Assembly (NCBI GenBank): GCA_029262065.1
Contig: JAJDAC010000044.1
Coordinates: forward strand, 66,827 to 130,826
Direction: 5' to 3'
Source of the DNA: Candidatus Krumholzibacteriota bacterium
GTDB lineage: Bacteria; Krumholzibacteriota; Krumholzibacteriia; JAJRXK01
Length of the DNA stretch: 64,000 nucleotides
Shown here: piece after piece, positions 3,128 to 63,900 of the stretch
Position numbering within the stretch: the first letter of the stretch is position 1
Layout: each line of letters starts with the position of its first letter
Notes under the pieces: generated by a model
The model's database searches: none
Seen by the model: the letters and a program-made list of their open reading frames with translations, nothing else
Told to the model about the DNA's origin: nothing
Position numbers and translations under genes: made by a program

Positions 3128-3886
3128 TCAGACTCCGCCGAAGCGGCGATGGCGTCGCTGGTACGCGTCGATGGCTTCGAGCAGATCGGCCTTGCGAAAA
3201 TCCGGCCAGAGCACGTCGGTTACGTACAACTCGGCGTAGGCCAGTTGCCAGAGCAGGAAGTTGCTCAGGCGCATTTCACCACTCGTGCGAATGAGCAGGT
3301 CGGGATCGGGAAGATCCGGCTCGTACAGATACGCGTGCAGCAGCGACTCGCTCAACTCTTCGGGCTTCATGCGTCCCGCGGCCACGTCTTCGGCGAAGCG
3401 TCGCGCGGCGGTTACGATTTCCTGACGCCCGCCGTAGTTCAGAGCCAGGTTCAACACCATGCCGTCGTTGCCCGCCAGCCGAGCCTGCGCGTCGTGCAAC
3501 GCGTTCAAGGTTCCCTTGGGAATGGTTGCAAGGTTACCGGTGGCGACCAGACGGATGTTGTTGTCCATCAATTCCAGGAATTCGGTCGACAGAACCTCGC
3601 GAAGAAACGCCCACAGGGCTTTCACTTCGTAGCTCGGTCGCTTCCAGTTCTCCATGCTGAACGTGTAGAGCGTCAGTGCCTCCACGCCCAACTCAGCACA
3701 GGTGCGCACGGTCTCGCGTACGGCGTGACGGCCGGTGCGATGTCCCGCGATACGGGGCATGACCCGCCGTCGAGCCCAACGCCCGTTTCCGTCCATGATC
3801 ACAGCGATGTGACGGGGCAGGTTTCCACGCTCAAGAATCTGCTTGGACAGCGTCTCGACGTGTTGTGAGGTGCGCGCGCTACTCAT
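3128..3886 (-). CDS. uppS: isoprenyl transferase / undecaprenyl-diphosphate synthase
   Basis: PRHIAVIMDGNGRWA, NYGGRxE, FLLWQxAYAEL motifs of cis-prenyltransferases. 252 aa. Confidence 0.9.
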   Translation of the reverse strand: MSSARTSQHVETLSKQILERGNLPRHIAVIMDGNGRWARRRVMPRIAGHRTGRHAVRETVRTCAELGVEALTLYTFSMENWKRPSYEVKALWAFLREVLSTEFLELMDNNIRLVATGNLATIPKGTLNALHDAQARLAGNDGMVLNLALNYGGRQEIVTAARRFAEDVAAGRMKPEELSESLLHAYLYEPDLPDPDLLIRTSGEMRLSNFLLWQLAYAELYVTDVLWPDFRKADLLEAIDAYQRRHRRFGGV

Positions 3887-4133
3887 ACGTGGGGGAACAG
3901 CTCAAGGTGTTGGGGCGAATCGACTCAGGCCCCTGCTTTGGGGCGAAAGTCCATGATAGACCACAATGCGGCCGATGACCTGCGAAAGCAACATCCCTTC
4001 CTGATACGCCGCGCAAATAGATTACACTCGTCATTGCATGACCTCGGGATCCATTGGGTTGCTGCGGGGCAGCCAAAATCGGTATCCTTGATTCATCTCT
4101 TCCCTCCATTGCCTGTCAAATGGAGGTCCCCCA

Positions 4134-9733: not shown

Positions 9734-10969
9734 ATGGACATCGTCGCGTCCCACCGTGCCGCTCGCGCGGCTCACCAGCAATTGATCACCGCGCTTCGCG
9801 AACTGGAAAACGCCGAGCAAAACGCCGTGCTCAGCTTCGCTGAAATTCTGCACGAACAACACTTCCGCCCCTTGGGCTTCGCCTCCATCTGGCACTACGG
9901 CATCGAGGGCTTGGGCTTCTCGAAGTCGAAGACTGCCCAATTCGTCCGTCTCGCCAAGGACGTGAAGCGCCTGCCGTCGTTGGAGCGAGCGCTGACCGAG
10001 AACGAGATCGATTGGACCAAAGCGCGTGAGATCGGCAAGGTCGCCACGGTCGACAGCCAAGATCAATGGATCGCGCGCGCCAAGACGAAGAGTCGGCGCG
10101 AACTGGAAGCTGATGTGCGCAAAGCGCGTAAGCAAGCGCTTTCATCGCCCGTGGCAGCACCGTCAACCGGGTTGCCTTCGTCAGCCGGGTTGCCTTCGTC
10201 AGCCAATCTATCTTCGCCAGCCGCACCAGTCGAGTTGCCGTCGCCCGTCGCGCCAGCCGTGCAAGCCAGCTTCATCGCCTCCGACCAGCTTCCCCAGGCA
10301 GACACGGTTCTGCGCGTCAGTTTCGAACTCACGGCGCTGGAGTTGGCCACGCTCGAGAAGCTCATGGAAAAAGCACAACGCGCGACAGCCAAGCGCAATC
10401 GATCACGGGCCGCCTTGTTGCTATCGGCCTTCGACGCATTGGTTCGGGGAACTCACGACGCCACCGCTGTTCAGGAAACGAACAAACCGGCAGCCGAGTG
10501 TACCCGGGTACACTCCACGCCAGCCCTTGGGCCCGCGTCACCCGCTACCGCGGCTCGGCCTGTCTCGTCGGCGCCACCCGTGCAGGTGGTTGTTCACCGC
10601 TGTGACTCATGCAATCAAGTCAGCGTACCCACCGACCGTGGTGACCTCCCACTCTCGGCCGCCGAAGCCAGCGCGGCTACGTGCGACGCCGTGGAGTTCC
10701 ACGCCACGAAACCAAGCCGCTCACGTATTCCAAGGAAGATCAGAAAACGGGTGCTCGCGCGCGACGGGCAGCGGTGCCGCGTGTGCCGCTCAACACGTTT
10801 CGTCGATGTGCATCACCGCCACAAGGAAGCCGACGGAGGCCCCCACACAGTGGAAAACTGCATGTCGCTGTGCCGGGCGTGTCATGTGAACACGCATCGC
10901 GAGGAGGAACTCCTGGAGCGAGGCGTTGCGCTGGAACGTGAGGTCATGAGCAACGTGGGCGCTGACTGA
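9734..10969 (+). CDS. DUF222-domain HNH endonuclease (REP13E12-family-like)
   Basis: N-terminal DUF222-like helical region. Low-complexity GLPSSAGLPSSANLSSPAAPVELPSPVAP linker. C-terminal HNH nuclease: CRVCRSTRFVDVHHRHKEADGGPHTVENCMSLCRACHVNTHR. Confidence 0.8.
   Translation: MDIVASHRAARAAHQQLITALRELENAEQNAVLSFAEILHEQHFRPLGFASIWHYGIEGLGFSKSKTAQFVRLAKDVKRLPSLERALTENEIDWTKAREIGKVATVDSQDQWIARAKTKSRRELEADVRKARKQALSSPVAAPSTGLPSSAGLPSSANLSSPAAPVELPSPVAPAVQASFIASDQLPQADTVLRVSFELTALELATLEKLMEKAQRATAKRNRSRAALLLSAFDALVRGTHDATAVQETNKPAAECTRVHSTPALGPASPATAARPVSSAPPVQVVVHRCDSCNQVSVPTDRGDLPLSAAEASAATCDAVEFHATKPSRSRIPRKIRKRVLARDGQRCRVCRSTRFVDVHHRHKEADGGPHTVENCMSLCRACHVNTHREEELLERGVALEREVMSNVGAD
10496..10515. 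repeat. perfect 20-bp palindrome GAGTGTACCCGGGTACACTC (copy 1, inside the HNH gene)
   Basis: Exactly self-complementary. A second copy, GAGTATACCCGGGTACACTA (18/20), lies at 59346..59365. Confidence 0.8.
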
Positions 10970-11629: not shown

Positions 11630-14260
11630 TTGTTCGCGGAGTTGCTCGATCTTTCGCCTGACCGTCGCGCCCGACGACTTGCCGAAATCTGCGCTGAAGA
11701 CGCCTCGACCGGCGACGAGCTGCGTTCCCTTCTGGGCGCCCATGGCGAGGCCGGCCAGTTTCTCGAGCCCGGCCGAGACGCATCCGTCGATCCGTTCATC
11801 GGACAGCAGATTGATCGCTACCGCGTGGTTCGACTGCTAGGCAAGGGCGGCATGGCCGAGGTCTACCTGGCTGAGCGGGCCGATGCCACCTTCGACAAAC
11901 AAGTCGCTCTGAAGCGAATCCAACCGGGGCTCAACAACGCCTCCGTCGTCTCTCGCTTCCACGCCGAGCGCCAGGCGCTGGCCAACCTGGAACATCCCAA
12001 CATCGCTCGCCTGATCGACGGCGGGTCGGCCGAAGATGGTCGGCCGTTCCTGGTCATGGAGTACGTCGACGGCAGCCGCCTCGACGAACATTGCGACGAC
12101 AAGCAGGCCTCGATCGAAGACCGCCTACGGCTGTTTCTGGACGTGTGCGGAGCCGTGCACTTTGCGCATCAGAACCTCATCGTCCACCGCGACCTGAAAC
12201 CCGCCAACGTGTTCGTCAACGACCAGGGCGTGGTCAAGTTGCTGGACTTCGGTATCGCCAAGTTTCTCGATGCCGATTCCGCCGGCGCCGCCATCGACGC
12301 CACGGCCACGCAACACCGCGTATACACCCCGGCCTACGCCAGTCCCGAGCAAGTGCGCGGTCAACCCATCTCCACGGCCACCGACGTGTACGCGCTGGGT
12401 GTGATTCTGTTCGAGTTGCTCACCGGTCACCGCCCGTACCGCATCAGCCCAACCGCCACGTTCGCCGAGATCAGTCAGGCCATCTGCGACCAACCGCCCG
12501 AGCACCCCAGCCAGGTGCTCACAACGGGCGAGAGCGGCGCCGATACGGCCGATCGAATTGCCAAACTGCGCTCGGTCAGCGCGGCGCAACTGCGCCGCAA
12601 CCTATCCGGCGACCTGGCCATCATCGTTCTCAAGGCACTGCGTAAGGAGAAGGAGCGACGCTACGATTCGGTCGAGGCGATGGCTGAAGACATCCGGCGC
12701 TTCCTGTCTGGCCACCCGGTACTGGCCCGTCCCGATTCAGCCCGCTACCGCGTGGGCAAGTTCGTCCGGCGAAACAAAGCGCTGGTAGCCATGGCGTCGG
12801 TCGCCGCGGTGGTGCTGATCGCCAGCTCGATCGTGAGCAGTGGTCTTTTCGTGCGCGCCGAACGCGCGCGCGCGGCGGAACAGGAGCAACGTCAACAAGC
12901 CGAGCTCAGCAGCGACTTTCTTGAGTCGTTGTTGGGCAACATCAATCCCGACGTGGCCCTCGGACGGGACACCGAGCTCCTGGGCGAAATCCTGAAAGAC
13001 GCCTCGGCGCGCATCGACGATGAACTGGAATCATCGCCACTCATTGCCGCTCGCATGCACGTCGTCATCGGTTCGGCCTACAATTCCATTGGTGAATACG
13101 AGCGGGCCGAGACCCACCTGAACCAGGTAGCCGCGATGCATGCGTCGCAGGGAGATGCGCCGCCGCTCGACGTGGCCGAGCGCTTGGCGGCCCAGGCCAA
13201 TCTGGCGAGCAACGTCGGCAAGAATGATGAGTGCCTCGAATTCGCCAGCCAGGCGATTGAACACTACGAGCAAGAAGGCCAGGGGCGATCACCTTCGGCC
13301 GCTTCCGTGCTTCTCCTCGTAGCGAGAGCCCAGGCAAACCTGGGCAACTACGACGAGGCCATCGCGACACTGGAGGGCATGCTGCCGTGGCTGGAAGCAT
13401 CTCCCGATCTTCAGTCACAACTGGGTGAGTGCCTCAGTAGACTCGGACGTACCTACGCCATCGAAATGCGGTCGGCAGAATCCATCAACACGCTCGAACG
13501 CGCCATCGCGCAGGCCCGCAGTGTTCACGGCGATGAGCATCGACTGGTGGGAACCGCCTACCTCAATCTGGGATGGGCACAGTATCGCAGCGGGCAACCC
13601 GAGGCCGCCGAAGCCAATTTCAGGGAATCGCTACGCATCTGTCGCAAGGTCCTCCCCGCCGACCACCCTGACATCGCCACCTCGATCAATCAACTGGCGG
13701 GCGCGCTGGAGGAACAGGGCAAGCACGAGGAAACCGAAGCACACTTTCTGGATGCGATCGACCGCTTCAAGGCGTCCTACGGCGACAAGCACCCCGACGT
13801 CGGCACGGCCTACAACAACCTGGGCGCGCTCTACGTGAAGATGAAACGGTACGATGAAGCCAGCGCAAACCTGCAGCGTGCGGCCGATACCTACGGGGCG
13901 GTTCTGGGCGAAGACCACGTGTACGTGGGGATCGTGCTGCAGAACCTGGTCGGCGTGTACGACGATCAAGACCGACTATCAGAGGCCCGCGATAGCATCG
14001 AACTTTCCCGCCGAATACTGTCCGAGAGCTTCGGTGAAGACGACATCCGCACGCAGTACATGCATGCGGCCCACGCCATGATTACCGCCAGCGAGGGAAA
14101 ATTCGAGGAAGCCGAACCCGTCCTGCTGGCCGCCGAAAAGGCATTGGCGGAGGCCAAGAATCGCAGGCTGGGTCGATCTCGCCGCTTCCTGGCCCGCTTC
14201 TACGACATGTGGGGCCGGTCCCAGGAAGCGAAACAATGGCGCGATCGAATCGATGAATAG
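11630..14260 (+). CDS. serine/threonine protein kinase with a C-terminal TPR-repeat array
   Basis: Hanks kinase motifs LGKGGMAEVY, ALK, HRDLKPANVF, DFGIAK, SPEQ, followed by a TM segment and multiple TPR-like repeats. TTG start at 11630 after GGAGG (11586-11590); exact start uncertain. Paralog at 56275. Confidence 0.85.
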   Translation: MFAELLDLSPDRRARRLAEICAEDASTGDELRSLLGAHGEAGQFLEPGRDASVDPFIGQQIDRYRVVRLLGKGGMAEVYLAERADATFDKQVALKRIQPGLNNASVVSRFHAERQALANLEHPNIARLIDGGSAEDGRPFLVMEYVDGSRLDEHCDDKQASIEDRLRLFLDVCGAVHFAHQNLIVHRDLKPANVFVNDQGVVKLLDFGIAKFLDADSAGAAIDATATQHRVYTPAYASPEQVRGQPISTATDVYALGVILFELLTGHRPYRISPTATFAEISQAICDQPPEHPSQVLTTGESGADTADRIAKLRSVSAAQLRRNLSGDLAIIVLKALRKEKERRYDSVEAMAEDIRRFLSGHPVLARPDSARYRVGKFVRRNKALVAMASVAAVVLIASSIVSSGLFVRAERARAAEQEQRQQAELSSDFLESLLGNINPDVALGRDTELLGEILKDASARIDDELESSPLIAARMHVVIGSAYNSIGEYERAETHLNQVAAMHASQGDAPPLDVAERLAAQANLASNVGKNDECLEFASQAIEHYEQEGQGRSPSAASVLLLVARAQANLGNYDEAIATLEGMLPWLEASPDLQSQLGECLSRLGRTYAIEMRSAESINTLERAIAQARSVHGDEHRLVGTAYLNLGWAQYRSGQPEAAEANFRESLRICRKVLPADHPDIATSINQLAGALEEQGKHEETEAHFLDAIDRFKASYGDKHPDVGTAYNNLGALYVKMKRYDEASANLQRAADTYGAVLGEDHVYVGIVLQNLVGVYDDQDRLSEARDSIELSRRILSESFGEDDIRTQYMHAAHAMITASEGKFEEAEPVLLAAEKALAEAKNRRLGRSRRFLARFYDMWGRSQEAKQWRDRIDE

Positions 14261-41387: not shown

Positions 41388-42992
41388 CTACTGAAGCGTA
41401 ACCAACACCGTGATCCGGTCGGTCTTACCGGTCATGTCCTGAAGCGCCTTGCCCACGATGGTTCCGACCTTGGGGTCATCCGCGCGCATGGCGTGGCCGG
41501 CGGTCGCCGAGGTTACAAGCAGATCGCCGGCTCGCACGGGACCGTTTTCGGCGGACACCTTGCACGGCACGATGCCCACGACGGCGAGCGGAATCTGATC
41601 GTAGTCGCCGGCAATGTCGATGGCCTTGCGAGGATTGCCCTCGGCGTCCGCACCCACCTCGCGCAAGTCCCAGTCGGTCTCGGTGCCCAGCAGGCCGGGG
41701 CGCGTGCTGTAGATACCCGCCACCAGCCGCGAATGGGCCGCACTCGACTTCACGAATCCGCGGGCGGAGCGCGGGTCGATCACGACCACGTCGCCGGCCT
41801 CGACCGAGGCTTTGCCCGTCGTGACGTGGACCAGCTCAGCAAAGTCGGCGCCACCGGTGGTGACGACTCCGTCGAGAGACAGGTCGCCGTCGGCCCAAAC
41901 CCGGAGCTTGACGTCACCATTGTTCCACTGCGCCTCCAGGAACTGCGCGTTGGGGTCCGAGGTTGAGTCGAGCTCGAGCTCGATCAGGTCGGCCCCGCCC
42001 ACCGAAGCCGGCACGCGCTCGATATGCACCACGTTGGCGGCGGTCGACACATCTTCCACCTCGAACCGGTAGAACGGATCCAGCTTGCCCACGGCCAGGT
42101 TCACGTTCACTCCAAATTCTCCGGTGTTGTTCACGGCCACCGCATCGACGAAGGCGCCGTTCGGCGAATCCAATGAGTGGCCGTCCCCGGTCGCCGTGTT
42201 GGCCGTGGTCTGGGTCGTTCCATCGGGAAACCGGACTCCACCCAACTTGGAGTGGATCACGCCGTTCACTTCCAGCTTCGAGGCCGGGATCGCATCTCCG
42301 ATCCCGATGCCCACGTTGCCTTCATCAGTCACCGTGAACCGTGTCCCACTCAGATCGAGTTTCCAGTCTCCGGTCGCTCCATCCACGTAGTGCCAACCAG
42401 TCTGCCCCGTTCCGGCATAGTAGCCGTAGAACGGTTTGCCCAGATCACCCTCGGTGCTCACGTACATCCCGCCGTAACCCGACTGGATGGGCGCGTGCAC
42501 TCCGAACCACTCCGAACCCACGACGTAATCGCGATTGATACCCACGAAACCAGGGTTGGTGTTTGTGATCGCCGTGCCGTTGGTTTGCCAGGGGCTGTTC
42601 AGGGCGTGCAGTGCGTAAGGCGCCGGCTGCACGGGCTGGCGGGGCGTAAGCAATTCGAAGGGCAGCGTGTCGGTGGGGTCGTGCGGATCGCGCACTTCTA
42701 TTTCGAGCCAGCGCTCCTGCCCATCAAAGGCGTTGGCGCCGAAATCCAACTGCACCGAGAAGACGCCGCGGCTCACCGTCACGTTCGTCATCGACAACGA
42801 CGTTCCGATGACGGTACCGCCGGCACTCGCGTCGTGCATGGTGAACCTGAAATCGACGGCGCCATCCACCTGGATACCGCTGTTCTGCAGTTCTCCCTGG
42901 TAGCTGAAGCTCGAGCCCACGGCTGCGGCCTGGGCCTGGCTGGCCAGAACGCCCAGAAAGAGGATCGATAGGAAGCAACGAGTGCGAAGCAT
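41388..42992 (-). CDS. secreted hypothetical protein, tail-fibre/beta-helix-like
   Basis: Signal peptide MLRTRCFLSILFLGVLASQAQA. Gly/Thr/Asn-rich repeat-like body (GNVGIGIGDAIPASKLEVNGVI...). 534 aa. No catalytic motif recognised. Confidence 0.55.
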   Translation of the reverse strand: MLRTRCFLSILFLGVLASQAQAAAVGSSFSYQGELQNSGIQVDGAVDFRFTMHDASAGGTVIGTSLSMTNVTVSRGVFSVQLDFGANAFDGQERWLEIEVRDPHDPTDTLPFELLTPRQPVQPAPYALHALNSPWQTNGTAITNTNPGFVGINRDYVVGSEWFGVHAPIQSGYGGMYVSTEGDLGKPFYGYYAGTGQTGWHYVDGATGDWKLDLSGTRFTVTDEGNVGIGIGDAIPASKLEVNGVIHSKLGGVRFPDGTTQTTANTATGDGHSLDSPNGAFVDAVAVNNTGEFGVNVNLAVGKLDPFYRFEVEDVSTAANVVHIERVPASVGGADLIELELDSTSDPNAQFLEAQWNNGDVKLRVWADGDLSLDGVVTTGGADFAELVHVTTGKASVEAGDVVVIDPRSARGFVKSSAAHSRLVAGIYSTRPGLLGTETDWDLREVGADAEGNPRKAIDIAGDYDQIPLAVVGIVPCKVSAENGPVRAGDLLVTSATAGHAMRADDPKVGTIVGKALQDMTGKTDRITVLVTLQ

Positions 42993-45093: not shown

Positions 45094-48000
45094 TCAGCGG
45101 ACCACAGCCACCGTACGCCTCTCCTCCTGGGTACGGCCATCCGCGTAACGAACGTTGAGTACCGCCAGGTAAACGCCATTGCGCACCGTGCGGCCCTTTC
45201 CGTTTCGACCGTCCCAGACAGCGCTGGTGACCAGACCAGCGGGCAAGTCGTCGCCGTCGAGCAATGTAATGACACGGTTGCCGGTGAGGTCGAACAGCGC
45301 CAACGATACTTCCGCGTTCGCTTCCAGATTGAACGCGAAGTTCGTGAGTTCACGTCCCGCGGCGAAAGGATTCGGATAGTTCACGTAGCTCTCGCTCAAG
45401 CCCTGCGCACTGAACGTTCCCGATTTCGTCTGCAACGGAAACGCCTGACTGGTTGCCGCCGACACCTGGATCTGGAGCTGGGCGCTGAGCGGCTGGATTA
45501 CGTCTACATCGACCTGATCGATCTGCAGGAAGAACTGATCGGTCGCGGGATCGTCCACCAGGTCGATGAAAAGCTGCAGCGACCGAACGGTGGCGGCCTC
45601 TACCTCGAGTGGCGGAGAAAAGTCCACGGTGGCCGGCTCGCCCGTCATCAGCGTATCCGAACTCGCGAGCATGGCTTCGCCGTCGGTTACGTACACGCGA
45701 CGGAGAACCTGGGCATCGGGAAGAGCGCCGCCGCTCTCATCCATCGTCCGCATCGTCAGCGACCGCAGACGGATTGGTCCGGCTTCTTGGTCGGCAATGT
45801 TCTCGAGCGAAAGCTCCCCCACCGCTACGTCGCGCCCCGAACGGGATAGCACCGCGGGCATCGTGCTCGAAAGACCCACTTCAAGGTCGCGCGCGGTGGG
45901 TACGAACTGGGTAACGCCCGACGACAGAGGGAATGTCTGTCCTGAAACGGCCGAAGGTTCAATGGGAGTGCCCGAATTGGCGTCGACGATGACCATGTCT
46001 TCGGCCAGGAACGTCAACTCGAAGAACGACGTGGGCGCACTCGCCTCCGAATCGATTCGCAGTTCGACGTTCACCGTATCGGCCGGATCCAACCAAAGCG
46101 AAGGAATCGCCACGATGAACGGTTGGGCGCCAGCCGGAAAGGTCGATATGGTCTGGGCCAACTGATCATCCACGTACACATCCACGGCGTCGAGAAACAC
46201 GTCCGGAGCCAGGGCGACGCGTCGCTCGTCGAAACATCGAACGGCAAAGGAATCGAGGCGTATCTGCGCCGTACCGGCAGAACCGGGATGAACTATCTGG
46301 ATCGACACTGCTTGCACGTCCGCCGCGCCCAGACCTACCGCCGGAGGAAACAACGGAGCCGCGGCCATCTGGACCGCATCGGCCGCGACTTCGACCACGA
46401 CGTCGTGACCACGCGAGCCTTGCACGTAGGTGACGGGAACGATTTCATGAGCATTGGGATCGCGCGCTTCGATCGTGCTCGGAACTCCGAGCTGGGCGTG
46501 GAACGTCCCGATCGGAGCGTCAGGGTTCAGCTCAGCCATCAGTCGCACCGCAATGGGTGTGTTCACCGGCACCGAGATCTGTGGGCTGAATTCCAACACC
46601 AGAACCGTATCGGCAGTCGCCTGGACCACCTGATCGAAGTGGGTTTGGAAGGCCGTCTCGACTTTCAACTGACCCAGATAGTCCGCCGGATTGGCGAGAG
46701 GATTGTCACCGGTGTCCGTGAGGTGGACTTCCAGCCGCGAAACCCGCACGTCCGTTGTCAGGCCGTCGATCCCTGCACTGTGCAGCGACGTGTCCAGCAG
46801 TACCAAACCGGGTTGCCCTGGGTTGACTCTCGAAACCAGCGGGGTAGGAACGGTTACATCGAGTGCGGTCGGCGAGGCCAGGACCGTGACCAGGCCGCCC
46901 CGGATAGGAAACTCGTCCTCTTCGAGTGCGACAGACACGGGAGCACCTGAATTTGCGTCGGTACCCACGATCCAACTGGCGTCGGCCAGTACGATGCGGA
47001 AGTTGGGGACGACCGTGTCCGGGGTGACACCAATCTCGACGCGGATCGATACGGGCTCGGAGGTAGTGACCTGCACCGGCGTAGCGGGCACCATGACCAC
47101 TTCCGACTCGGTATTCGGCAGACTACTGGAATCGAAGTAGACGGTGGCGCCCTCCTTCATGACGATGCGTGAGAGGACCGAGCTGGGCACGATCGGCTGG
47201 CCCTGGTCATCCTCGACCGCCAGTCGCAGACTTTCCAGATGGATGTTCGCACCGTCCGCATCACCGAAGTTGGTCAGGGTGAGCACCATCCGGTCGATGT
47301 CCTGCTGACCCCGGTTCACCGTGAATGGAATCGACCCCACGGCAATCAGACCCATTTCGTCCGGACTCGAGAAAACCCGATGCTGACCCGAAGACGCGGG
47401 CAACGAAGATCGGGTGATGCTCGTAGACACCTCGGTTCCACTGGCATCGCCAACCAGCTGCACGGCGCCGGGACTGTCCCCGGCAAACGTCCACACGAAC
47501 TCGACCGACGCACCGTCGACGAGGTCGGCCGAGGCCGGGGTTGGACCGGTCACCAGGGAAATGCTTCCACTACCACTGGAACTCAACGCTCCGGGAGTGA
47601 CCGCCACGAAGTCGCCACCGCTTCGGTTGCGTACGGCCATGCGCACCTCGAAACTCTGACCGACCGTACTTACGCCACGTTCGAACTCGAGCGATGCGAT
47701 CAGCGGCGCGGTACTCAACAATATCGTGTTGTCGACGTCGACGGAGACGTCGCGGGGTCCATCATTGTCGGACTGGACCTGCACGCCTCCGGGCACGATC
47801 GAAAGCCGCACGGTGGAAGAATCGGTGGCCGAAGCCGCGGCGGTCAGGCCTACGAAGAACCGCCCGCCGGGTGCGACCAGAGATTCAACCAGGAATGGAC
47901 TGACCCACGTACCGGTGCCACCCACCGGAGTGAACGCTCCCAGATCGCTTTCGGGGCCGGGCTCGAAAATGCCGTTGCCGTCGTCCCTGTACAATCTGAG

Positions 48001-51000
48001 TTCGCCTATGTCTGTTGCGGTGGCAGTGCCCAGATTGGCGAGAGTGAGGCCATCGAGCGTGTCCCCCGAGAAACCGTTGGCCGGAATGACCACGTCCATG
48101 GCCAGCACGGGGCCTTCACTGGGCCCAAGCACAATCGGTGATACCGAGCGAGACAAGATCTGGATCGCGAGCATTCCGTCTATGGTCCATGCGTTCTGAC
48201 TGGTCAGGGGAAACTGACCCGCGACGATCGTGTCGCCGGAAAACCCCATCTCGGTAATCGAGGAGATGCGGGCTGACACCGCGTCGGAGTCGACAACGTT
48301 CTCCGGAGCGAAATCGGCCGTCACCCATATTTGAACCGATGATTCCTGCGGCAGTCCCAATGCGAACCCAGAAAAAACCGCGCGTCCCAGGCTCACGCTG
48401 GTAGACGAAATGCGCGAGTCCAGACTGGGCCCGTCGATCGTCCCGTTCGCGTTGGTGTCCACGATGAGGTTCATGTTGCGGAAGGCGTCGTCAAATCCCG
48501 GGCCTGACCCCAGCGAATGCTCGATGACGACCTCGACGCGGTTGAGATCACGGATCTGTTCGTAGTCGTTGGTCAAAACGATATCGAGCAGAGGCACATC
48601 CCGAGCGTCTGGATCGACCGCGCCGCCCATGACCGGCGACGACGCGACAGTGACGCGATCGGGAACCGAGACCGAACGTGAGGACGGTTCGGCCACCGCC
48701 AGATCGATCGGCCCGTGATTGCCGGTTGCCATGCCCAACCCGCCGTAGGGCGTGGGCGGAATCCCAAGTTGCAGCCGCTCCCCTCCCACCGCGTCGGCGT
48801 GGATGTCGACCGCCACGAAGATCCGCTGGCCTCCAACGCCCACCGGAACCTCGATACCCGTCAGCTCCCAGCGTGCCCCGGAAAACGCGAACTGCCCCAG
48901 CGGCGTATCGAGATTGGTGTCGAAGTTTCCGTCGCCGTCGTCGGACCACGCTTTCATGGCTGAAATGAAGCTCGCGTCGAATTGGCTCTCGTAGTTGACG
49001 ACGTTGATCACCTGAATCGAGTCGTCCTGGTAGCCGTTGCGGGGCGCGATGAAATCGAGAGCGAGGTTGTCTTGCGAACCTATGAGATAGGTAGTGGACG
49101 GCAGGGGGATGATCTGGATCTGTGCAGCCGACATTCCCGTGACCTCGAACGACCCGCTGGGATCGATCGGAAAGGCTCCTTGAACGGATTGGCCCGTGGC
49201 GATCACGATCTCGCTGGCGTCGGCGATGCGCAGATCGAGTTGGTCGGTGTCGCGAGAAAGAATCGAGGCTCCCGCGTGAACTTCGAATACGCGCTCGGTG
49301 CCGGCGGGAATTTCGGCTTGCAGGTTCGCGAACGTCGCCTCGCCCAGCACCATGCTCGCGGTGGCTACCTGCGCTCCGTCGAACAACAACGAGAGCTGAC
49401 TAAATTGAGCGTCCAGCTCTGCGCGCGTGGGCGTGGACGTTGTGACCGTCGCATCGGCGATCGTCAGGCTCGTGACCCGACGCGCACCGGTACCTGTATT
49501 TCCAAGCGTAACGCGCAGCATGGACTGTGGCGCGCCACCGGGAAGAAGCTGGGCGCTGCTCTGGCTCGATTGGACCAGCACGACGTCTTCGGCCATCGCG
49601 CCCGCGACCAGGACCGAATCCTGGCTGGTGTCGTTGGCAGCGTTCGGGTCGTACAGTTCGCTGCCCGTGATCGACGCGGTATTCACGATCTGGGAGCCCT
49701 CGGATCCCGGCAGCACCCGGGCCTGCAGATCCAAAAATACGCTATCGCCCGTCGCAATCGCCTGCGTGTTCCATAGGTTGGTGGTGTTGCTGTATCCGCC
49801 CTGAGACGGGTTGGCCGCGACGAAGTCCAGGTCGGGGGGAAGCGCGTCGGTCACATCGACCCAGCTCGTGTCGTTGGGGCCGTCGTTGTTGACCACGATG
49901 TGGAAGTTGACCACGTCGTTCACGGCTGGTACCGGGTTATCTACGGTTTTCGAGACCCGCAGATCAGCGGTGAGTACCTGAGCCACGCCCGAGTCCTGGT
50001 CGTCGGTCGCGTTGGCGTCGATCGATCCGGCGTCGCTGGCGGTGGCCGTATGGGTGACCTGGGCCGGGGCGCTGGCATTGACCAGTAGTTCGAACTGCAG
50101 CGTCGTGCTGTCTCCAGGCGCCAGCTGGCCCGCGAACCAGGTAGCCCCGGAGTACGAACCCTGCTGGGCCGAACTGCTCAGCACCTGTAGTCCCGGCGAA
50201 AAACCGTTGGCCACTCGCGGATCGCCAGCCGGGTCGGGCCCAGCATTCCTCAACACCACCGTGGACTGGATCGTGTCGCCCACGGTGACCGATGGAGAAT
50301 CGAAGGTGACGCGCGCCGACAGGTCGGCGACGTCATTGGTCAGCGTGTAGCCGAGTGTGATCTTGGGGCGTTGGCCGATGGGAGAAGCTTCGCGGCTCTT
50401 GATCGCCTCGGGTCCGCCGCCTCCGTCGGCGATCAGCATGATGCCGTCGTTGGTTCCCGATACCCACTGTTGCACCAGGTCCGTCAGATCGAAGGTCTCA
50501 AGGCTACCATCTACTGCAAACGATAGTTCCACGGACGGGTCGAAGATCGTGGCGGCGTTTGTCCAGGTCGCGGTGTTTTCCGACCACGCGCCGGAAACCC
50601 GATGCACCTCTAGTGAAGTAGCGCCCGCGCTCAAGGGCCACAGATTCACGAATGCCGTATCGATCACCGCACCCGCGGGAACCAGTGACAGGTCCCATTT
50701 CAGGAGAGCTCGTCGGTCGGTAACTCCGTTGGTTTCGACCAGAAGCTCCGGGTCCGTTCCGTAGTTCGCCCCTGGATTGCCCTGATCCAACCACGTATCG
50801 GCTACGACGACGAAAGAACCTGCGAAGTAAGTCAGTCCAACACTGGCGGAATTGTCGTTGGAGTTCGGGTCGCTTTGGTCGGTGCTGGACACCGAGGCAG
50901 TATGCTGTTCGTTGGGAGCACCGGTCACCGGCCCTACCAGGTAGGTGATGTCGAGGCGAATCGTGCTTCCCGTGCCGACATCTCCCACGCTCCAAGTCTC

Positions 51001-58899: not shown

Positions 58900-59321
58900 A
58901 ACTCGAGCAGGCGATCGACCTTCTCGCGCACATCGGGTTCCATGGCCACGGCTTTCATGGTCTTCAAGTCGACGAAGACCTTGGTGATGGTACCGGCGGC
59001 GAGAACTTGCGCGTCTTGCCCCTCGTCAGGACGGACGATCTCGAACCGCCAGGTCCAGCTCCGTTCGCTGCGCCGCAGGATCTGGGCTCGGACCTCGATG
59101 GTGTCGCCGTGCCGGATGGGACCCGTGAAGTCGCTCTCGCAGTGGACGATGGGCGCGCCGACCCCTCGCTTCTCGAAGAATTCCTGGAACGGGATCTTCA
59201 AGACCTCGTGGAAGAAGTCCTCGTAGGCCAGGTGGAAGTAGTGGAAGACGCGCGGGTAGTAGACGAGTCCCGCGTGGTCGGTATGACCAAACGGAACGCG
59301 CATCCGATAGCGATGGATCAA
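58896..59321 (-). CDS. hotdog-fold acyl-CoA thioesterase (4HBT/YbgC-like)
   Basis: 141 aa. VPFGHTDHAGLVYYPRVFHYF N-terminal signature of 4HBT thioesterases. Confidence 0.75.
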   Translation of the reverse strand: MIHRYRMRVPFGHTDHAGLVYYPRVFHYFHLAYEDFFHEVLKIPFQEFFEKRGVGAPIVHCESDFTGPIRHGDTIEVRAQILRRSERSWTWRFEIVRPDEGQDAQVLAAGTITKVFVDLKTMKAVAMEPDVREKVDRLLEF

Positions 59322-59345
59322 GAGAAGCCCCTGCTGGTTGAGGTG

Positions 59346-59365
59346 GTCAACATACGAGTATACCC
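59346..59365. repeat. near-palindrome GAGTATACCCGGGTACACTA (copy 2 of the 10496 palindrome) in the thioesterase / lipoprotein divergent intergenic region
   Basis: 18/20 identical to GAGTGTACCCGGGTACACTC. The central 14 nt TACCCGGGTACACT are identical. Confidence 0.75.
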
Positions 59366-59516
59366 GGGTACACTACGGCGTCGCTCCGTTCAAGAACTTA
59401 TGGGATCCAAGTCCGTGGACCGTGTCAACGAACGAAGAATCTGGTCACAGGAGTCGCGCAGCTCCGACCTCTTCCCTGAAGCCACCCTCGATCGACTCAT
59501 CCATCGGAGAATCTGA

Positions 59517-60716
59517 ATGCGCCTCTTTGCCACCCTGCTCCTTTTCCTAGCCCTTGTCGCCTGCGGCAGTGACGACCCGATGGGCCCCAGCGCGCCCCGA
59601 ACCGTATCTGGAACCGTAACCAAAGGACCCGTGCTAGCGGCGTCCGTCAGCTTGCTGGCCGTAGATGCCAGTGGCAACCCCGGTTCCGTCGTGGCCGGGC
59701 CCTTTGCCACCGACGCAGAGGGACGTTGGTCAGGGACGGTGTCCGCCAATCAGAGCGGTCCCTTCTTCTTGCTCGCCACCGGTGGGTCCTACGAAGACGA
59801 GGCCACCGGGGCCACGGTCGACATCGGATCCGGCACCATGATGGGTTACTCCACCGGCGGATCCGGCGTGGTGTCGCCCTACACCCAGCTGCTCGTTGAC
59901 GTGGTTGACGCCGCCGATGCTTCCTGGAGTTCGTCAGCTGCGTGGACGGAAGCCATCGCCAACTTCGAACAGAATTTCGGCTTCGACCCCACCCGCGACG
60001 TGCCCTCGAGCGCGGGCACGGAAGCAGAGCGGAGATACCTTGGCGCACTCGGCGGGCTTTCGTTGCTCATCGACGACAGCGCCGCCCTATCGGGGCTGAG
60101 TGGGGTGGGCCTTTTCGAACTTGTGATGGCTCTGGTCGCGGACATGGCCGACGGGAGTCTCGACGGCGAACGCCTGGACGGATCGACGATCTTGATCGAC
60201 GGCAGCATCGTCGTGCTTCCGGGCATCGATGTGGGAAGCCTTGGCCTCCTGGTCGACGCCATGAATGACTACGCCGAATCGATCGCCGCGTTGTCCGATC
60301 TCTTTTACGACCCGCTGGATCTCGACTTCAGTGAACTCTACGCCCCCATCGTGGGTGGCACCGGTCAACTGACTTTGGGCGGCCCCGGCGAAAGCAGTTT
60401 GCCGGAAAGTAGTTTCGATGCCGCGAGCGTGACATCGCCAACCGAGGACATCCACTTCTGGCGCATGCCGATCAGCTCCGGAGTCTTGTCCGTGAACATT
60501 GTGGACGCGGTGGGCACCGGCGGATTCTTTCGATCCGTGCTCTTCGGCTACAGCGATGCTTCCGACAACCTGGTGACCTGGGAAGCTCTCTATACCTCCA
60601 ACGGAGGCGCCGTAACCAAGGTCGGCAACGAGTTCACGCTGGTGGACGTGACGCTGGGCTCGAACCACGGACTGGGAAACCTGACGTTGAACGGAGTTCT
60701 TACGTTCGGTGACTGA
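59517..60716 (+). CDS. lipoprotein of unknown function with an N-terminal carboxypeptidase-regulatory-like (CarbopepD_reg) beta-sandwich
   Basis: Lipobox LALVAC. TVSGTVTKGPVLAASVSLLAVDASGNPG...TDAEGRWSG. 399 aa. Confidence 0.6.
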   Translation: MRLFATLLLFLALVACGSDDPMGPSAPRTVSGTVTKGPVLAASVSLLAVDASGNPGSVVAGPFATDAEGRWSGTVSANQSGPFFLLATGGSYEDEATGATVDIGSGTMMGYSTGGSGVVSPYTQLLVDVVDAADASWSSSAAWTEAIANFEQNFGFDPTRDVPSSAGTEAERRYLGALGGLSLLIDDSAALSGLSGVGLFELVMALVADMADGSLDGERLDGSTILIDGSIVVLPGIDVGSLGLLVDAMNDYAESIAALSDLFYDPLDLDFSELYAPIVGGTGQLTLGGPGESSLPESSFDAASVTSPTEDIHFWRMPISSGVLSVNIVDAVGTGGFFRSVLFGYSDASDNLVTWEALYTSNGGAVTKVGNEFTLVDVTLGSNHGLGNLTLNGVLTFGD

Positions 60717-60724
60717 TACCAAGG

Positions 60725-60753
60725 GGCTCACGCCTTGAAATGAGGCGTGAGCC
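60725..60753 (+). terminator. stable hairpin GGCTCACGCCT-tgaaatg-AGGCGTGAGCC 8 nt after the stop of the 59517 gene (terminator candidate without a clear U-tract)
   Basis: 11-bp perfect GC-rich stem, 7-nt loop. Downstream gaagctactcttg is only weakly T-rich. Confidence 0.4.
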
Positions 60754-60990
60754 GAAGCTACTCTTGAACACCATTCCCACCTGCGCATCCCAACCAAGCG
60801 AACTGCTCGTCTCATGCCAAGGGCGATAGCCCGGGCCAGTTGACCACCCCCCATCCAATTCGATACCCTGTCTTGAGAAGTCGTCGGGCCCAACTCCCCC
60901 TGCCCACCATGGGCCCGATCACTGCGACGGCCTATCCTCCCCAGACCGCGCAGTCCATATGTACGGATGACTACGCCCAGGAGGCATAGC

Positions 60991-63900
60991 ATGCGGTCCC
61001 TATTCATCTGGCAGGCCCTTTCTCTTCTTCTCCTATGTTCCGCCACGCCGAGTGCGGCAGCGAGAAACCTCGAATCGAGCGGGGCACCCGAATTCCGTGA
61101 GGTCCCACGCGGGCTCACCCCGGAAGACCTCGACCGCCAGGTCATCAGCAGCCGCTCGACTGGCACCACAGCGAAGTCGGGACAACGGTTCTACCTGTAC
61201 GGCGCACCGGGAACCCTCGACGGTACGTTCCAGACCTCCCAGGGGGTTCCCGACTGGCAGGGATGGGCCACAAAGGACTACACCTACGATGCCGCCCACT
61301 GGCACGTGTCCGATTTCAACGCCGCGAACCTGAACGAAAACGGCGCGGGAAACATGGGCATGTGGTGCGGAGACAATCCCGCCACCGGATGGGCGGCACC
61401 GCCAGGCTACGGAAACGGCTGGCGCGACTACCTTGTGTGGCGATCTGGACCAATTGCCGACCCTTCGCAGGGGCAGACCATCGATCTCGATTTCTTCTTC
61501 AACTACGAAACCGAGCCGGGCTACGACTTCTTCAAGGTCGAATATCTCAACAGCACGGGCTGGAACACCGTGTACGCGGTGTACGGAACGAACAAGGTGG
61601 GCGGAACGGGCGGGGTGTTCCCGACGCCGGGCGTCCAGTACTCCACAGTGGGCGCACCGCCCATCGAGTATCTTGGCAACGACTACGCCGGCGATGGTAA
61701 CGATGAAATCGTGCTACGCCTGACCTTCACGTCCGACGGGATCGGAGCGGACGAAACCGGCATCTACTTCCTCACCGACGCCGGGGCCGTACAAGTGGAC
61801 GACGTCTCCGTGTCCTACGAAGACGCCGGCCCCCAGGTCGATTTCTCCGACTTCGAAGGATCCGGGCCCTTCAGTTGGCAGCCAGAACTCGCACCGTTTG
61901 TCGGGGACTTCGCCAAGATCTTCCAGAATCTGACCGATCTCGACGATTGCCGTGACAACCGCTCGCCGCAAATGACGTTCATCGACGACGGCACGTCGCC
62001 CAGCAATGCGCCGGGACAATCCACCGGCGGAAGCACCTCACCGGAGTGGTCCTACGGTACCCCCGGGGGCTGGACCACGAACGACAGCGGCGGGCTGGCC
62101 GGCGAGGGATACTATCTGTACAACGAATTGCGATCGCCGGGATTTCCCATCGACCTTCCCGGTACCGAAGATGACAGCGAGCACTTCGTGTACGTGGTGG
62201 AATGGGAGGCCTTCGAACATCACCCGCAGATCACGCCTACTTTGTTTCCGTGGCTCCTGGGATCGCTCGACGGAGGCGTGAACTACAACCGGTTCTTCAG
62301 AGTAACCTTTCCTGGCTATGCCCTACCCACTCCTCCGCGGGACTACGCTCGAAGCGCCTACACAGATTTCTACCTGATACAGACACCAACTCATCTCAAG
62401 CTCCTTCTTCGCTTCTACGACAGTGATACCTACGGGGAGACCTACGACGCAACGCCTGCGCCCTTCCTCGACAACGTACGTGTGTACAAGGAGCTGTCGG
62501 GGCCCATCATTTCCGCCAACCACTGGCAACTGTTCCAGGACGCCTTCCCGGCCAACGGCAGTCTCGATGTGAGTACAATGGCGGCACGCGATGCGCTCGA
62601 CGTGCGCCTCGACAGCGCCGAGGACAACCCTTGGGGCGATGGGAACGCGGCCGTGTTCACGATCGAGCCGGTGGCCTACGGAGCCGGGGGCACTTCGTAT
62701 GTCCTGCACTGGACCCTCGACAAGAACCCACTCTTCGAAGACGCCATTCGAACTCTGCCGGCCGGGTCGACCGTGTCGGTGGGTACCGGACCAAACGGCT
62801 GGGACCAAGTGACCGGCACGGCATCACGAACGTCGCTGGGCAACTCGCTGTGGTCGTTCGACCTGCCCGACCAGGACTTCTTCTACCCGGGCGACCGGCT
62901 CAGGTACTACATCGAAGCGCAGTCCTTGGAATTCATGGCGCAGACAGGGGGACCCGTGTCGACGCTGCCCGCGGACCTCACCGGCTACAGCGACGGTGTG
63001 GGCTACGACCCATTGTTCACCGTGCGGGCACTGCCCACCATTACGGATACGGCCGGAAGCCACCCTGCGATACTACTCGTCGACTACGACCAGAACGGCG
63101 ACTCAGCCAAACTGTGGAAGCAGACACTCGGCCAGATCGGCCTGGAGTTCGACCGCGATGTGGATGTGTTCCTCGGTCGTGGCCTCGAGGCAAACCTGGC
63201 CAGTACCAACCTGGGCGCCAATGTCGCCCAACTCGGCGGATACTCGTGTGTGTTGATGTCCACGAGGGTATGGCCTCACCTAGACGATTACGACATGCTC
63301 GAGCAGTGGCACGCCGGGCCCGGAGACAAGCTGGCGGCTTTCTTCGGCGACGATGTGGTGACCGCGGCGCCAACTACGTTTCGTAGCGACGTCATGGGCG
63401 TGCAGTACCTACAGTCGAGCGCGTCGAGCCTGGTTGGCAACCAGAAGGCGCCGCTCGTGAATCCACAGCAGGCACCGTTCGCCACCGGCTTCGTCGCGAA
63501 CGCCGGCTGCTATCTCCGCGGTCTCGACGCCATCTTGCCAACGGCTGGATCCACAGCGCCCCACGCATACGACGACGGCGCGGGAGGAACCTATCCTGCT
63601 ACCGTCGCGTCGGTGCTTTGGGACAGGATCGATGGCAGTAGTAACCGGATCATCGACGTGACCTTTCCCTACGGGTTGGATGCGATCGAGAACGAGCACG
63701 CCAAGACGCCAGGAGCGTCTGCGCGGGCGGAGTTATTGGCCGAGGTACTGGGCCTGGCGGCGCACTCGGGCGGAACGCCCACGCCGGCGCCGGTGCCGCA
63801 GCTTGCCGGTATCTACGGCCTGCAGGCACTACCCAACCCCTTCAACCCCCGCACCGAGATCAGTTTCCGGTTGGGTCAGGCCGGTGACACCCAGGTCCAG

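Follow-up and report, generated by a model that had tools for sequence, protein, structure and literature searches.

A palindrome embedded in the gene for an HNH nuclease, a candidate cognate site of the encoded protein

We analysed a stretch of 64,000 nt from a Candidatus Krumholzibacteriota bacterium (assembly GCA_029262065.1, contig JAJDAC010000044.1), termed the window below, and a perfect 20-bp palindrome therein, GAGTGTACCCGGGTACACTC (10496..10515, no strand assigned). It lies inside the open reading frame (ORF) for an HNH nuclease (9734..10969, +), and a second, similar copy is present elsewhere in the window. We consider it probable, at roughly 60%, that the HNH protein recognises this palindrome, within its own gene, as a cognate site comparable to parS and NBS (the Noc-binding site), i.e. 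the sites of ParB and Noc, and that the second copy is a dispersed site. The sequences point to an undescribed protein-and-site pairing that would be common to well over a thousand related genes. The analyses documented the conserved position of the palindrome, sequence changes that affect both of its sides, the predicted N-terminal fold of the protein, and the lineage-specific recurrence of the palindrome outside the gene.

The embedded palindrome in the HNH family

The gene codes for a 411-aa protein with a predicted ParB-like helix-turn-helix (HTH) domain, a zinc ribbon and an HNH nuclease domain (Pfam HNH, PF01844, E 2.4e-7), which is a distant relative of the DUF222-HNH proteins. A sequence-only reading of the window had described the palindrome as perfect, 20 bp long and located inside this ORF, and the description is correct. 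The DNA of this copy (copy 1) codes for E-C-T-R-V-H-S in the linker of the protein. A 16-mer of the palindrome, GTRTACCCGGGTAYAC, was scanned in one genome per species (596 Gb). At least 118 loci were retrieved, a total that is uninformative because we estimate that about 550 chance matches are to be expected. At one of the loci, L009 from an Eisenbacteria metagenome-assembled genome (MAG), the same 16-mer is found inside a 411-aa HNH ORF, at the homologous spot of the linker and again coding for CTRVHS. The L009 protein is 37% identical to the window protein, and the two genes lack BLAST similarity at the DNA level. The L009 palindrome uses the codons TGT and GTA, and the third codon positions of the gene have a G+C content of about 80%. 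Both codons are rare in genes with such third positions, which argues for selection on the DNA and not on the peptide. A second match of the scan, L019, likewise lies inside an HNH homologue.

Two protein searches yielded 96 homologues, and the size of the family is 1,523 cluster representatives (50% identity) at E ≤ 1e-30. Nearly all homologues contain a pentapeptide of the form X1-[P/T/A/S]-R-[G/V/A/L]-X5 directly ahead of the zinc-ribbon strand, the residues of which are reverse-complement codon partners. The pentapeptides include CTRVH/Q, GTRVP, VTRVT, FTRVK/N, STRVD, APRGA, GPRGP, SPRGD/E, CPRGH, TPRGV, RPRGR, SARAD, and SSRLD. A palindrome-compatible pentapeptide is present in the linker region of 59 of the 67 family proteins. 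The palindrome-compatible share of all Arg-centred pentapeptides is 26.8% in the linker versus 1.7% elsewhere in the same proteins (p = 2e-44). For an independent set of 113 cluster representatives the respective values are 12.3% and 2.1% (p = 1e-23), and in these representatives the pentapeptide peaks sharply 61-75 residues ahead of the LARD motif. A three-frame peptide test for palindrome compatibility had a background of 10%.

At the DNA level, eight genes and 80 metagenomic loci (88 in total) were available, the latter from a search with a 13-sequence subset of the alignment. A perfect palindrome of at least 12 bp is present at a relative gene position of 0.5-0.8 in 59 of the 88 loci, and most of the loci without an internal palindrome appear to be truncated genes. 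The half-sites, each read up to the centre of symmetry, include the types GTGTACCC, GTGCACCC, GTCCACCC, GTCCCCCC, CCGCCCCC, GTTTACAC (full site GTTTACAC|GTGTAAAC), TGTACAC, GTTGCCAC, and TTTCCCC (full site TTTCCCC|GGGGAAA). The GCCAC|GTGGC types (GCC ACG TGG) are read in another frame, as A-T-W, and therefore also indicate a constraint at the DNA level. For 47 distinct internal sites, the positions ±1 and ±3 are invariant (C.C|G.G), position ±2 is C or A, and and position ±7 is T/A in 42 cases. The sites typically read GAGT...ACTC. The positions between the core and ±7 show two or three pair types, and both arms are always changed. The inner six pairs are perfect by selection of the sites, and hence their sequence, not their pairing, is informative.

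Some genes have two to five tandem copies in frame (P0059, L169, L194-197, and L202). In L202 (2700-3000) the long linker of the HNH gene is an in-frame array of palindromes (MRTRVFTGE repeats), and the long linkers at L180:10640-10970 and L193:800-1100 consist of low-complexity repeats (GTAA and TGTHTAVS, respectively). The linker of the HNH gene is hypervariable. A second copy of the palindrome, encoding a second SPRGD, is found at the extreme 3′-end of the ORF in L136 (10927-10948) and for the proteins P0065, P0066, and P0071; with the linker copy at its other end, the nuclease-coding half thus has a site on either side. No full-length homologues were found on plasmids, which had been considered as a way to reach actinobacterial DUF222 genes. 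Six matches on viral contigs were unremarkable.

Dispersed copies and their co-variation with the gene

The second copy in the window, GAGTATACCCGGGTACACTA (59356..59375, no strand assigned), is identical to copy 1 at 18 of the 20 positions, including an uninterrupted run of 14 nt, TACCCGGGTACACT. It is the only other match to GAGTGTACCCGGGTACACTC in the window when up to three mismatches are allowed. The sequence-only reading had the identity and the shared run right, and its coordinates (59346-59365) were off by 10 nt. As it had stated, copy 2 is located in the divergent intergenic region between a thioesterase gene and a lipoprotein gene, i.e. a gene for a 4HBT-type thioesterase (58896..59321, −; Pfam 4HBT_2, E 2.5e-17) and a lipobox-bearing ORF without a Pfam family (59517..60716, +), the starts of which are 35 nt and 141 nt away, respectively.

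The longest palindrome reached at least 20 bp in 22 of 200 simulated Markov-1 windows (about 11%), and thus a 20-bp palindrome by itself is not significant. In 100 dinucleotide shuffles of the window, zero matches within three mismatches were obtained, and TACCCGGGTA is seen twice in the window, with an expectation of 0.018. The unusual part is the recurrence, i.e. the second copy with 18 of 20 identical positions, and not the palindrome by itself. An occurrence far beyond chance, as had been claimed, therefore holds for the recurrence and has to be withdrawn for the single palindrome. A CCCGGG-rich codon bias had been named as a possible trivial explanation. CCCGGG is under-represented in the window (23 instances versus 42 expected from a first-order Markov model), and hence such a bias is not the cause. 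A SmaI/XmaI-type restriction system in the lineage could be the reason for this avoidance. Copy 1 and copy 2 have unrelated flanks, and a BLAST comparison of the window with all loci revealed no flank similarity that would indicate a larger repeat unit around the window copies. No sigma-70 promoter or terminator-like site was called at copy 2 (scan of 59200-59600), neither copy is followed by a T-run as expected for an intrinsic terminator, and no Rfam family was matched at gathering score in the whole window. Further perfect palindromes of 16 bp are present at 1946-1961 and 41968-41983 (CGCTCCGGCCGGAGCG and TCGAGCTCGAGCTCGA), which is within the chance expectation.

We estimate that about 0.005 copies of the 16-mer are expected per genome by chance. 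Among the matches listed, one Krumholzibacteriia MAG has eight copies, the unclassified MAG MEGAHIT-group-1.1038 has seven, and the Eiseniibacteriota chromosome OZ245046.1 has four, at 0.87, 1.31, 3.97, and 5.69 Mb; additional Eisenbacteria and Krumholzibacteriota MAGs also contain the 16-mer among the matches listed. The suggestion that the sequence is a small dispersed repeat is thus borne out, with multiple and mostly intergenic copies in genomes of both groups. The sites on OZ245046.1 are spread over the chromosome and show no origin-proximal clustering of the kind associated with ParB/Noc. According to a GC3-based gene call, divergent, tandem, and convergent intergenic regions are occupied alike. 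Among the genes facing the sites are those for an aminotransferase, GyrA, NnrU, a methyltransferase, an RND pump, TrkH, Endo_dU, a flagellar rod protein, and a CMD protein, and the genes adjoining the dispersed sites share no function.

Some of the copies form tandem arrays with near-identical spacers, i.e. at L022:860-1110 (period of 38 nt), L191:788-854 (33 nt), L120:107-199 (77 nt), and L029:2684 and 2800 (116 nt), and a tandem cluster is also present in L103. A two-sided T>C / A>G change distinguishes the two units of the L029 array. In L109, a tRNA-Arg(CCT) gene is preceded, at a distance of 60-125 nt, by two copies (3722-3785 and 3846-3922) that are 48 nt apart. The dispersed copies commonly include asymmetric variants in which a hairpin would be broken (GTCTAC...GTACAC; C-C mismatches). 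In L023 and L126 (28 bp each), L089, and L019, the palindrome is lengthened by unrelated, complementary flanks.

Occurrences of the 12-mer core of each internal palindrome were counted outside the HNH genes (59 loci, 485 kb). The own core occurs 20 times, i.e. 4.1 times per 100 kb, compared with 0.10 times per 100 kb for the core of each other lineage, and is thus about 40 times more common. In L135, an internal CACCCGCCCCCGGGGGCGGGTG is accompanied by seven copies of the CGCCCCCGGGGGCG type, two of which are in the upstream intergenic region. In L136, GTCCCCCCGGGGGGAC precedes the gene and recurs in the linker and at the 3′-end. The internal 28-bp palindrome of L126 is of the GTGCAC type, and two GTCCAC variants are located in intergenic DNA of this locus. 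A copy precedes the HNH gene by 130-270 bp in about 15 loci, and in others copies are located several kb away. The neighbours of the HNH gene differ between loci and are mostly ordinary housekeeping and metabolic genes. As they are not conserved, no gene other than the HNH gene constantly accompanies the palindrome. A relation between the site and the HNH gene, one of several possibilities raised by the sequence-only reading, is thus supported by the same position throughout the family and by internal and external copies that match lineage by lineage.

Several further palindromes were encountered in these genomes. OZ245046.1 has a second palindrome family, TTGCACCCGGGTGCAA / AACACCCGGGTGCAA, in tandem arrays (L065:1589-1815; L047:3328 and 3587) alongside copies of GTGTACCCGGGTACAC, which suggests that one genome can contain several types of site, and perhaps several HNH paralogues. 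The variant GTATACCCGGGTATAC of Solirubrobacterales (L010, L012, L033, L067, L075, L105-L108, L112, and L114) precedes, by 7-11 nt, the start codon of a conserved ribbon-helix-helix (RHH)-like gene of 75 aa (MAKVMVSMPDELLAEVDAEARR...SRSAVLRGFA), which was recovered in nine of the eleven genomes. It is probably the autoregulatory operator of an unrelated RHH protein. A relationship of this protein to a mid-protein RHH domain of the HNH protein was considered and rejected (hhalign probability 0.4%). In the window, two paralogous genes for Ser/Thr kinases with TPR domains (11630-14260, +, and 56275-58899, +; 31% identical) each lie about 1.2 kb or less from a copy of the palindrome, and in L025 a copy is found 38 nt beyond the end of a similar kinase gene (L025:1399-4401). 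This proximity may be due to chance because such kinases appear to be common in these genomes.

The HNH protein and the explanations of the palindrome

The protein was modelled with AlphaFold2 (AF2) from an alignment of 76 sequences, with a mean predicted local distance difference test (pLDDT) value of 82.5. The N-terminal domain (aa 1-139; 9734..10150, +) consists of a long helix and a predicted DNA-binding domain of the ParB/Noc/Spo0J type, based on Foldseek and PF17762. Its HTH contains the predicted recognition helix KSKTAQFVRLAKDVKR (aa 64-79; 9923..9970, +; AF2 secondary structure). The palindrome is hosted by a linker at aa ~247-282 (10472..10579, +) that is modelled as disordered, with pLDDT values below 50 at aa 247-262 and of 42-55 across residues 241-280. 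Apart from the peptide encoded by the palindrome, the linker is unconserved. The zinc ribbon and the HNH nuclease domain follow at aa ~283-395 (10580..10918, +), as judged from Pfam, conservation, and Foldseek matches to the HNH domains of McrA (6ghc) and of the IscB type in the PDB. The catalytic and zinc-binding residues C348, C351, H360, H361, N375, C380, C383, H384, and H388 are conserved, and the HNH His/Asn/His residues and the CxxC pairs are invariant or nearly so across the 76 sequences.

For the N-terminal domain, a Foldseek comparison with the PDB retrieved a run of DNA-binding domains of ParB, Spo0J, and Noc, namely 1vz0 and the co-crystals with parS and NBS (6s6h, 6y93, 7ol9, and 4umk), among others. 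The top matches other than HNH domains were all ParB/Noc/Spo0J, with probabilities of 0.96-1.0, TM-scores (target) of 0.57-0.72, and E-values of 0.04-0.2. PF17762 (HTH_ParB) matched the same region in four of four divergent homologues with E-values of 0.005-0.024, which is under the curated cut-off. We consider a ParB/Noc-type DNA-binding fold of this domain to be moderately supported by the model. A ParB-CTPase (Srx-like) domain was not found: PF02195 (ParBc) did not match, and the AF2 model has a single long helix (aa 3-41) ahead of the HTH.

The ORF had been described as a DUF222-HNH gene with a low-complexity linker. The HNH domain and the linker stand, but PF02720 (DUF222) matches only some of the homologues; for aa 1-138 of the window protein no match was obtained even at E ≤ 10. 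The homologue P0013 scores 26.8 bits versus a cut-off of 24.4 bits, and many homologues have a precomputed PF02720 assignment. Searches of the defence-system and NCBIfam libraries with the HNH protein gave matches at the level of the HNH domain only, and an exact-protein look-up of the window protein returned no record. The neighbours of the HNH gene in the window code for a holin-like membrane protein and a small membrane protein, and no ParA/Soj partner is found among them.

In the binding-site reading, each half-site of the 16-20-bp palindrome would be occupied by one of two copies of the HTH domain, as ParB binds parS and Noc binds NBS. The palindrome lies in DNA coding for the disordered stretch that separates the DNA-binding half from the nuclease half. 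The linker peptide is free to vary, and therefore the DNA can be kept as a perfect palindrome. Binding to upstream and internal sites might autoregulate a potentially toxic nuclease, by looping or as a roadblock, in analogy to the internal operators lac O2 and gal OI, and the scattered sites might tether or target the nuclease on the chromosome. The asymmetric dispersed variants agree with the binding-site reading, since they are expected if one good half-site is tolerated. The proposal of an operator for a dimeric transcription factor survives only in this modified form: the likely binder would be the protein's own ParB/Noc-like domain, and the genes flanking the sites have no common function.

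A relation between the predicted recognition helix and the site was sought in the alignment of 76 proteins. Residue 69, located in the helix 64-79, is the best predictor of the inner pair type (ACCC|GGGT versus CCCC|GGGG) among the alignment columns. It is Gln in 17 of 17 sequences with ACCC|GGGT (TRV type) and in none of 46 with CCCC|GGGG (PRG type), and a neighbour-joining tree contains at least four independent switches at this residue. Arg68 accompanies GG at the outer positions in two separate clades. The correlation is suggestive, i.e. a hint and not a code.

Several observations weigh against a cognate binding site. Everything has been inferred from sequence, and the structural evidence is limited by the weak Foldseek E-values for ParB/Noc (0.04-0.2) and by Pfam HTH_ParB matches that stay under the curated cut-off. 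The wider metagenomic set breaks the rule for residue 69 (GTCCACCC with Glu69; GCCAC types with Gln69), and for this reason the correlation between residue and base may be largely phylogenetic. A simple code, with Gln69 specifying A as the fourth base counted from the centre, agreed with the first protein set and was rejected because it failed for the wider set of DNA loci. The internal copy of L126 and the dispersed copies there are distinguished by one symmetric pair. An upstream copy is absent at the window and at L009, the nearest characterised orthologue. The strict two-sided change of outer positions between close relatives and the flank-extended palindromes (L126 and L023) are explained at least equally well by a hairpin or by copying, and the tandem arrays, together with neighbouring genes that form no coherent set, by a structural or propagating element.

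Alternatively, the palindrome may be a mobile hairpin similar to repetitive extragenic palindromic (REP) sequences and REPINs, which would be copied around the genome as a single strand and mobilised by the enzyme of the single-copy HNH gene, with the internal copy as the master. This explanation seems possible but rather unlikely. It would account for copies in every intergenic type, even between convergent genes, for arrays with near-identical spacers (L022, 38 nt; L191, 33 nt; L120, 77 nt), for the concerted evolution of internal and dispersed copies by lineage, for changes that are always two-sided, for palindromes extended by unrelated complementary flanks (L023, L089, L019, and L126), for the stable hairpin of L126 (−24 kcal/mol, z −4.7), and for the unrelated functions of the genes beside the sites. 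However, no Y1/HUH transposase and no GTAG/CGTC head were found, the invariant C.C|G.G core is unnecessary for a hairpin, asymmetric variants with C-C mismatches are often seen, no fold is obtained for the + strand of copy 2, and the window has two copies only. Furthermore, we know of no mechanism by which an HNH nuclease copies a 16-bp site. A REP/RAYT-like explanation may be complementary to a binding site, with which it overlaps, and would put propagation and structure first. A more far-reaching possibility is a self-propagating pair of site and nuclease, in which the ParB-HTH/HNH nuclease would seed or homogenise the master palindrome of its ORF chromosome-wide, in arrays as well as at promoter-proximal and distal sites. 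Such a pair, which we regard as unlikely, would amount to a REPIN/RAYT-like domesticated system based on an entirely different enzymology, and it might extend to actinobacterial DUF222/REP13E12 genes.

The exact position between the DNA-binding half and the nuclease half would also suit a hairpin that acts at the level of the mRNA or of transcription and attenuates or pauses expression of the nuclease half, the dispersed copies being look-alikes or terminators. A stem of 8-12 bp with a CCGG loop is predicted (−15.7 kcal/mol for the window, −24.1 kcal/mol for L126), and both arms change together across the family. The z-score of the window hairpin is only −2.1, the T-runs of terminators are missing in the scan of 59200-59600, and neither the invariant core bases nor the occurrence of the lineage-specific palindrome upstream and at distant intergenic sites would be explained. 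We therefore judge this possibility to be improbable.

An operator of an unrelated global regulator, or a site of a restriction-modification system or a host factor, might be located in the HNH gene by chance. The palindromic sequence and the position of copy 2 in a divergent intergenic region are compatible with this, and GTATACCCGGGTATAC beside the RHH gene of Solirubrobacterales shows that other proteins can use similar sites. In contrast, the palindrome type co-varies with the HNH gene and with no neighbour, a conserved neighbouring regulator and a common function of the flanking genes are both missing, the profiles of the HNH family and of the RHH protein gave no match when compared, and no context of LexA, CsoR, or sigma-54 is present, which makes this explanation very improbable. 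Known operator types were also considered and rejected. The operators of CsoR/RicR-type regulators have the pattern TACCC...GGGTA; no such regulator is found in the context, and the Solirubrobacterales variant belongs to the small RHH gene. A LexA box (GTAC-N4-GTAC type) and a sigma-54 enhancer were discarded since neither SOS genes nor a GG-N10-GC promoter are nearby. The probability that two unrelated 20-mers are similar by chance is negligible: although a single 20-bp palindrome occurs in about 11% of such windows, none of the 100 shuffles had a second match, the 16-mer is found four to eight times in single genomes among the matches listed versus about 0.005 expected, and the position is conserved across hundreds of homologues, which already refutes chance.

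Comparison with known systems and minor observations

According to the sequences, the best-supported description of the pairing is that of a ParB/Noc-type protein and its site, with REP/RAYT-like features at the population level. ParB and Noc recognise the 16-bp palindromes TGTTTCAC-GTGAAACA and TATTTCCC-GGGAAATA, respectively; in each case two symmetric monomers insert the recognition helix into the major groove (PMC7383237). The HNH family would share the HTH fold, here predicted from the AF2 model, and has palindromes with two-fold symmetry, which are 16-20 bp long and known from sequence. The core C-x-C|G-x-G toggles between A and C at ±2, as do parS (CAC|GTG) and NBS (CCC|GGG) (PMC7383237). 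Like the NBS, the sites are scattered around the chromosome. In B. subtilis, spo0J has a parS within its own coding sequence. Unlike ParB and Noc, the HNH protein lacks the N-terminal ParB-CTPase domain and a ParA partner, and it has a zinc ribbon and an HNH nuclease in place of the C-terminal dimerisation domain. The half-site differs beyond the inner three bases, and the position of the site in the gene is conserved throughout the family, whereas its sequence diversifies rapidly. The ParB-HNH fusions that have been reported contain the ParB-CTPase fold (PMC12704722), i.e. the other ParB domain, which is absent here.

With the REP/REPIN-RAYT systems, the family shares short palindromic repeats that are mostly intergenic and sometimes clustered, the pairing with a single-copy, vertically inherited gene of the nuclease type, and a lineage-specific repeat that matches the copies at the gene (here 4.1 versus 0.10 per 100 kb). 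However, the enzyme combines a ParB-type HTH with an HNH nuclease and is not a Y1/HUH (IS200/IS605-type) transposase, the palindrome is inside the ORF instead of flanking it, and the palindromes are perfect and loop-less with an invariant core, unlike imperfect stem-loops with a GTAG/CGTC head. The copy number also appears to be lower, with four to eight exact 16-mers among the matches listed compared with tens to hundreds of REPs per genome. The REP/RAYT papers found make no mention of HNH partners.

The DUF222-HNH proteins (REP13E12 or 13E12 of mycobacteria) likewise have a helical N-terminal domain followed by the HNH domain, and several homologues score above the PF02720 threshold, unlike the window protein. 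In contrast to the multi-copy REP13E12, the family analysed here appears to be single-copy and located among housekeeping genes. REP13E12 is the integration target of phiRv1. DUF222 is listed as a domain of unknown function in the literature that we found. The lac O2 site (in lacZ) and the gal OI site (in galE) are auxiliary operators inside coding regions. The arrangement is similar insofar as one site is upstream and a second is a few hundred bp downstream inside the transcribed region. It differs because the putative regulator would be the product of the operator-containing gene and carries a nuclease domain, and the window and L009 have the internal site only.

An incomplete search of the literature found no description of an HNH family with its own palindromic site in the linker. 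The common DUF222-type HNH proteins would gain a testable model, which consists of a reader domain with the ParB/Noc fold, a predicted site, and an attached nuclease. The predicted cognate site of each member can be read from the linker of its own gene, often from the protein sequence alone. Dozens of putative protein-site pairs could thus serve as a natural series for the evolution of the specificity of ParB-type HTH domains. The linker is also a clear case of a DNA element that is conserved in a coding region, with the encoded peptide free to vary. If the nuclease cuts or nicks the 16-20-bp sites, the family would be a source of rare-cutting enzymes with predictable targets, and if the enzyme propagates its sites, they would form a repeat system of a new kind that resides in the genome.

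Two further observations concern the window as a whole. The Logan metagenome contig SRR15505514 is 99.99% identical to positions 52770-62347, and the next-best DNA matches of the window are to a Krumholzibacteriota MAG, with identities of 66-75%, which places the source among the uncultured relatives of Krumholzibacteriota/Eisenbacteria. In addition, the window contains a very long ORF of 2,440 aa (45094-52416, −).

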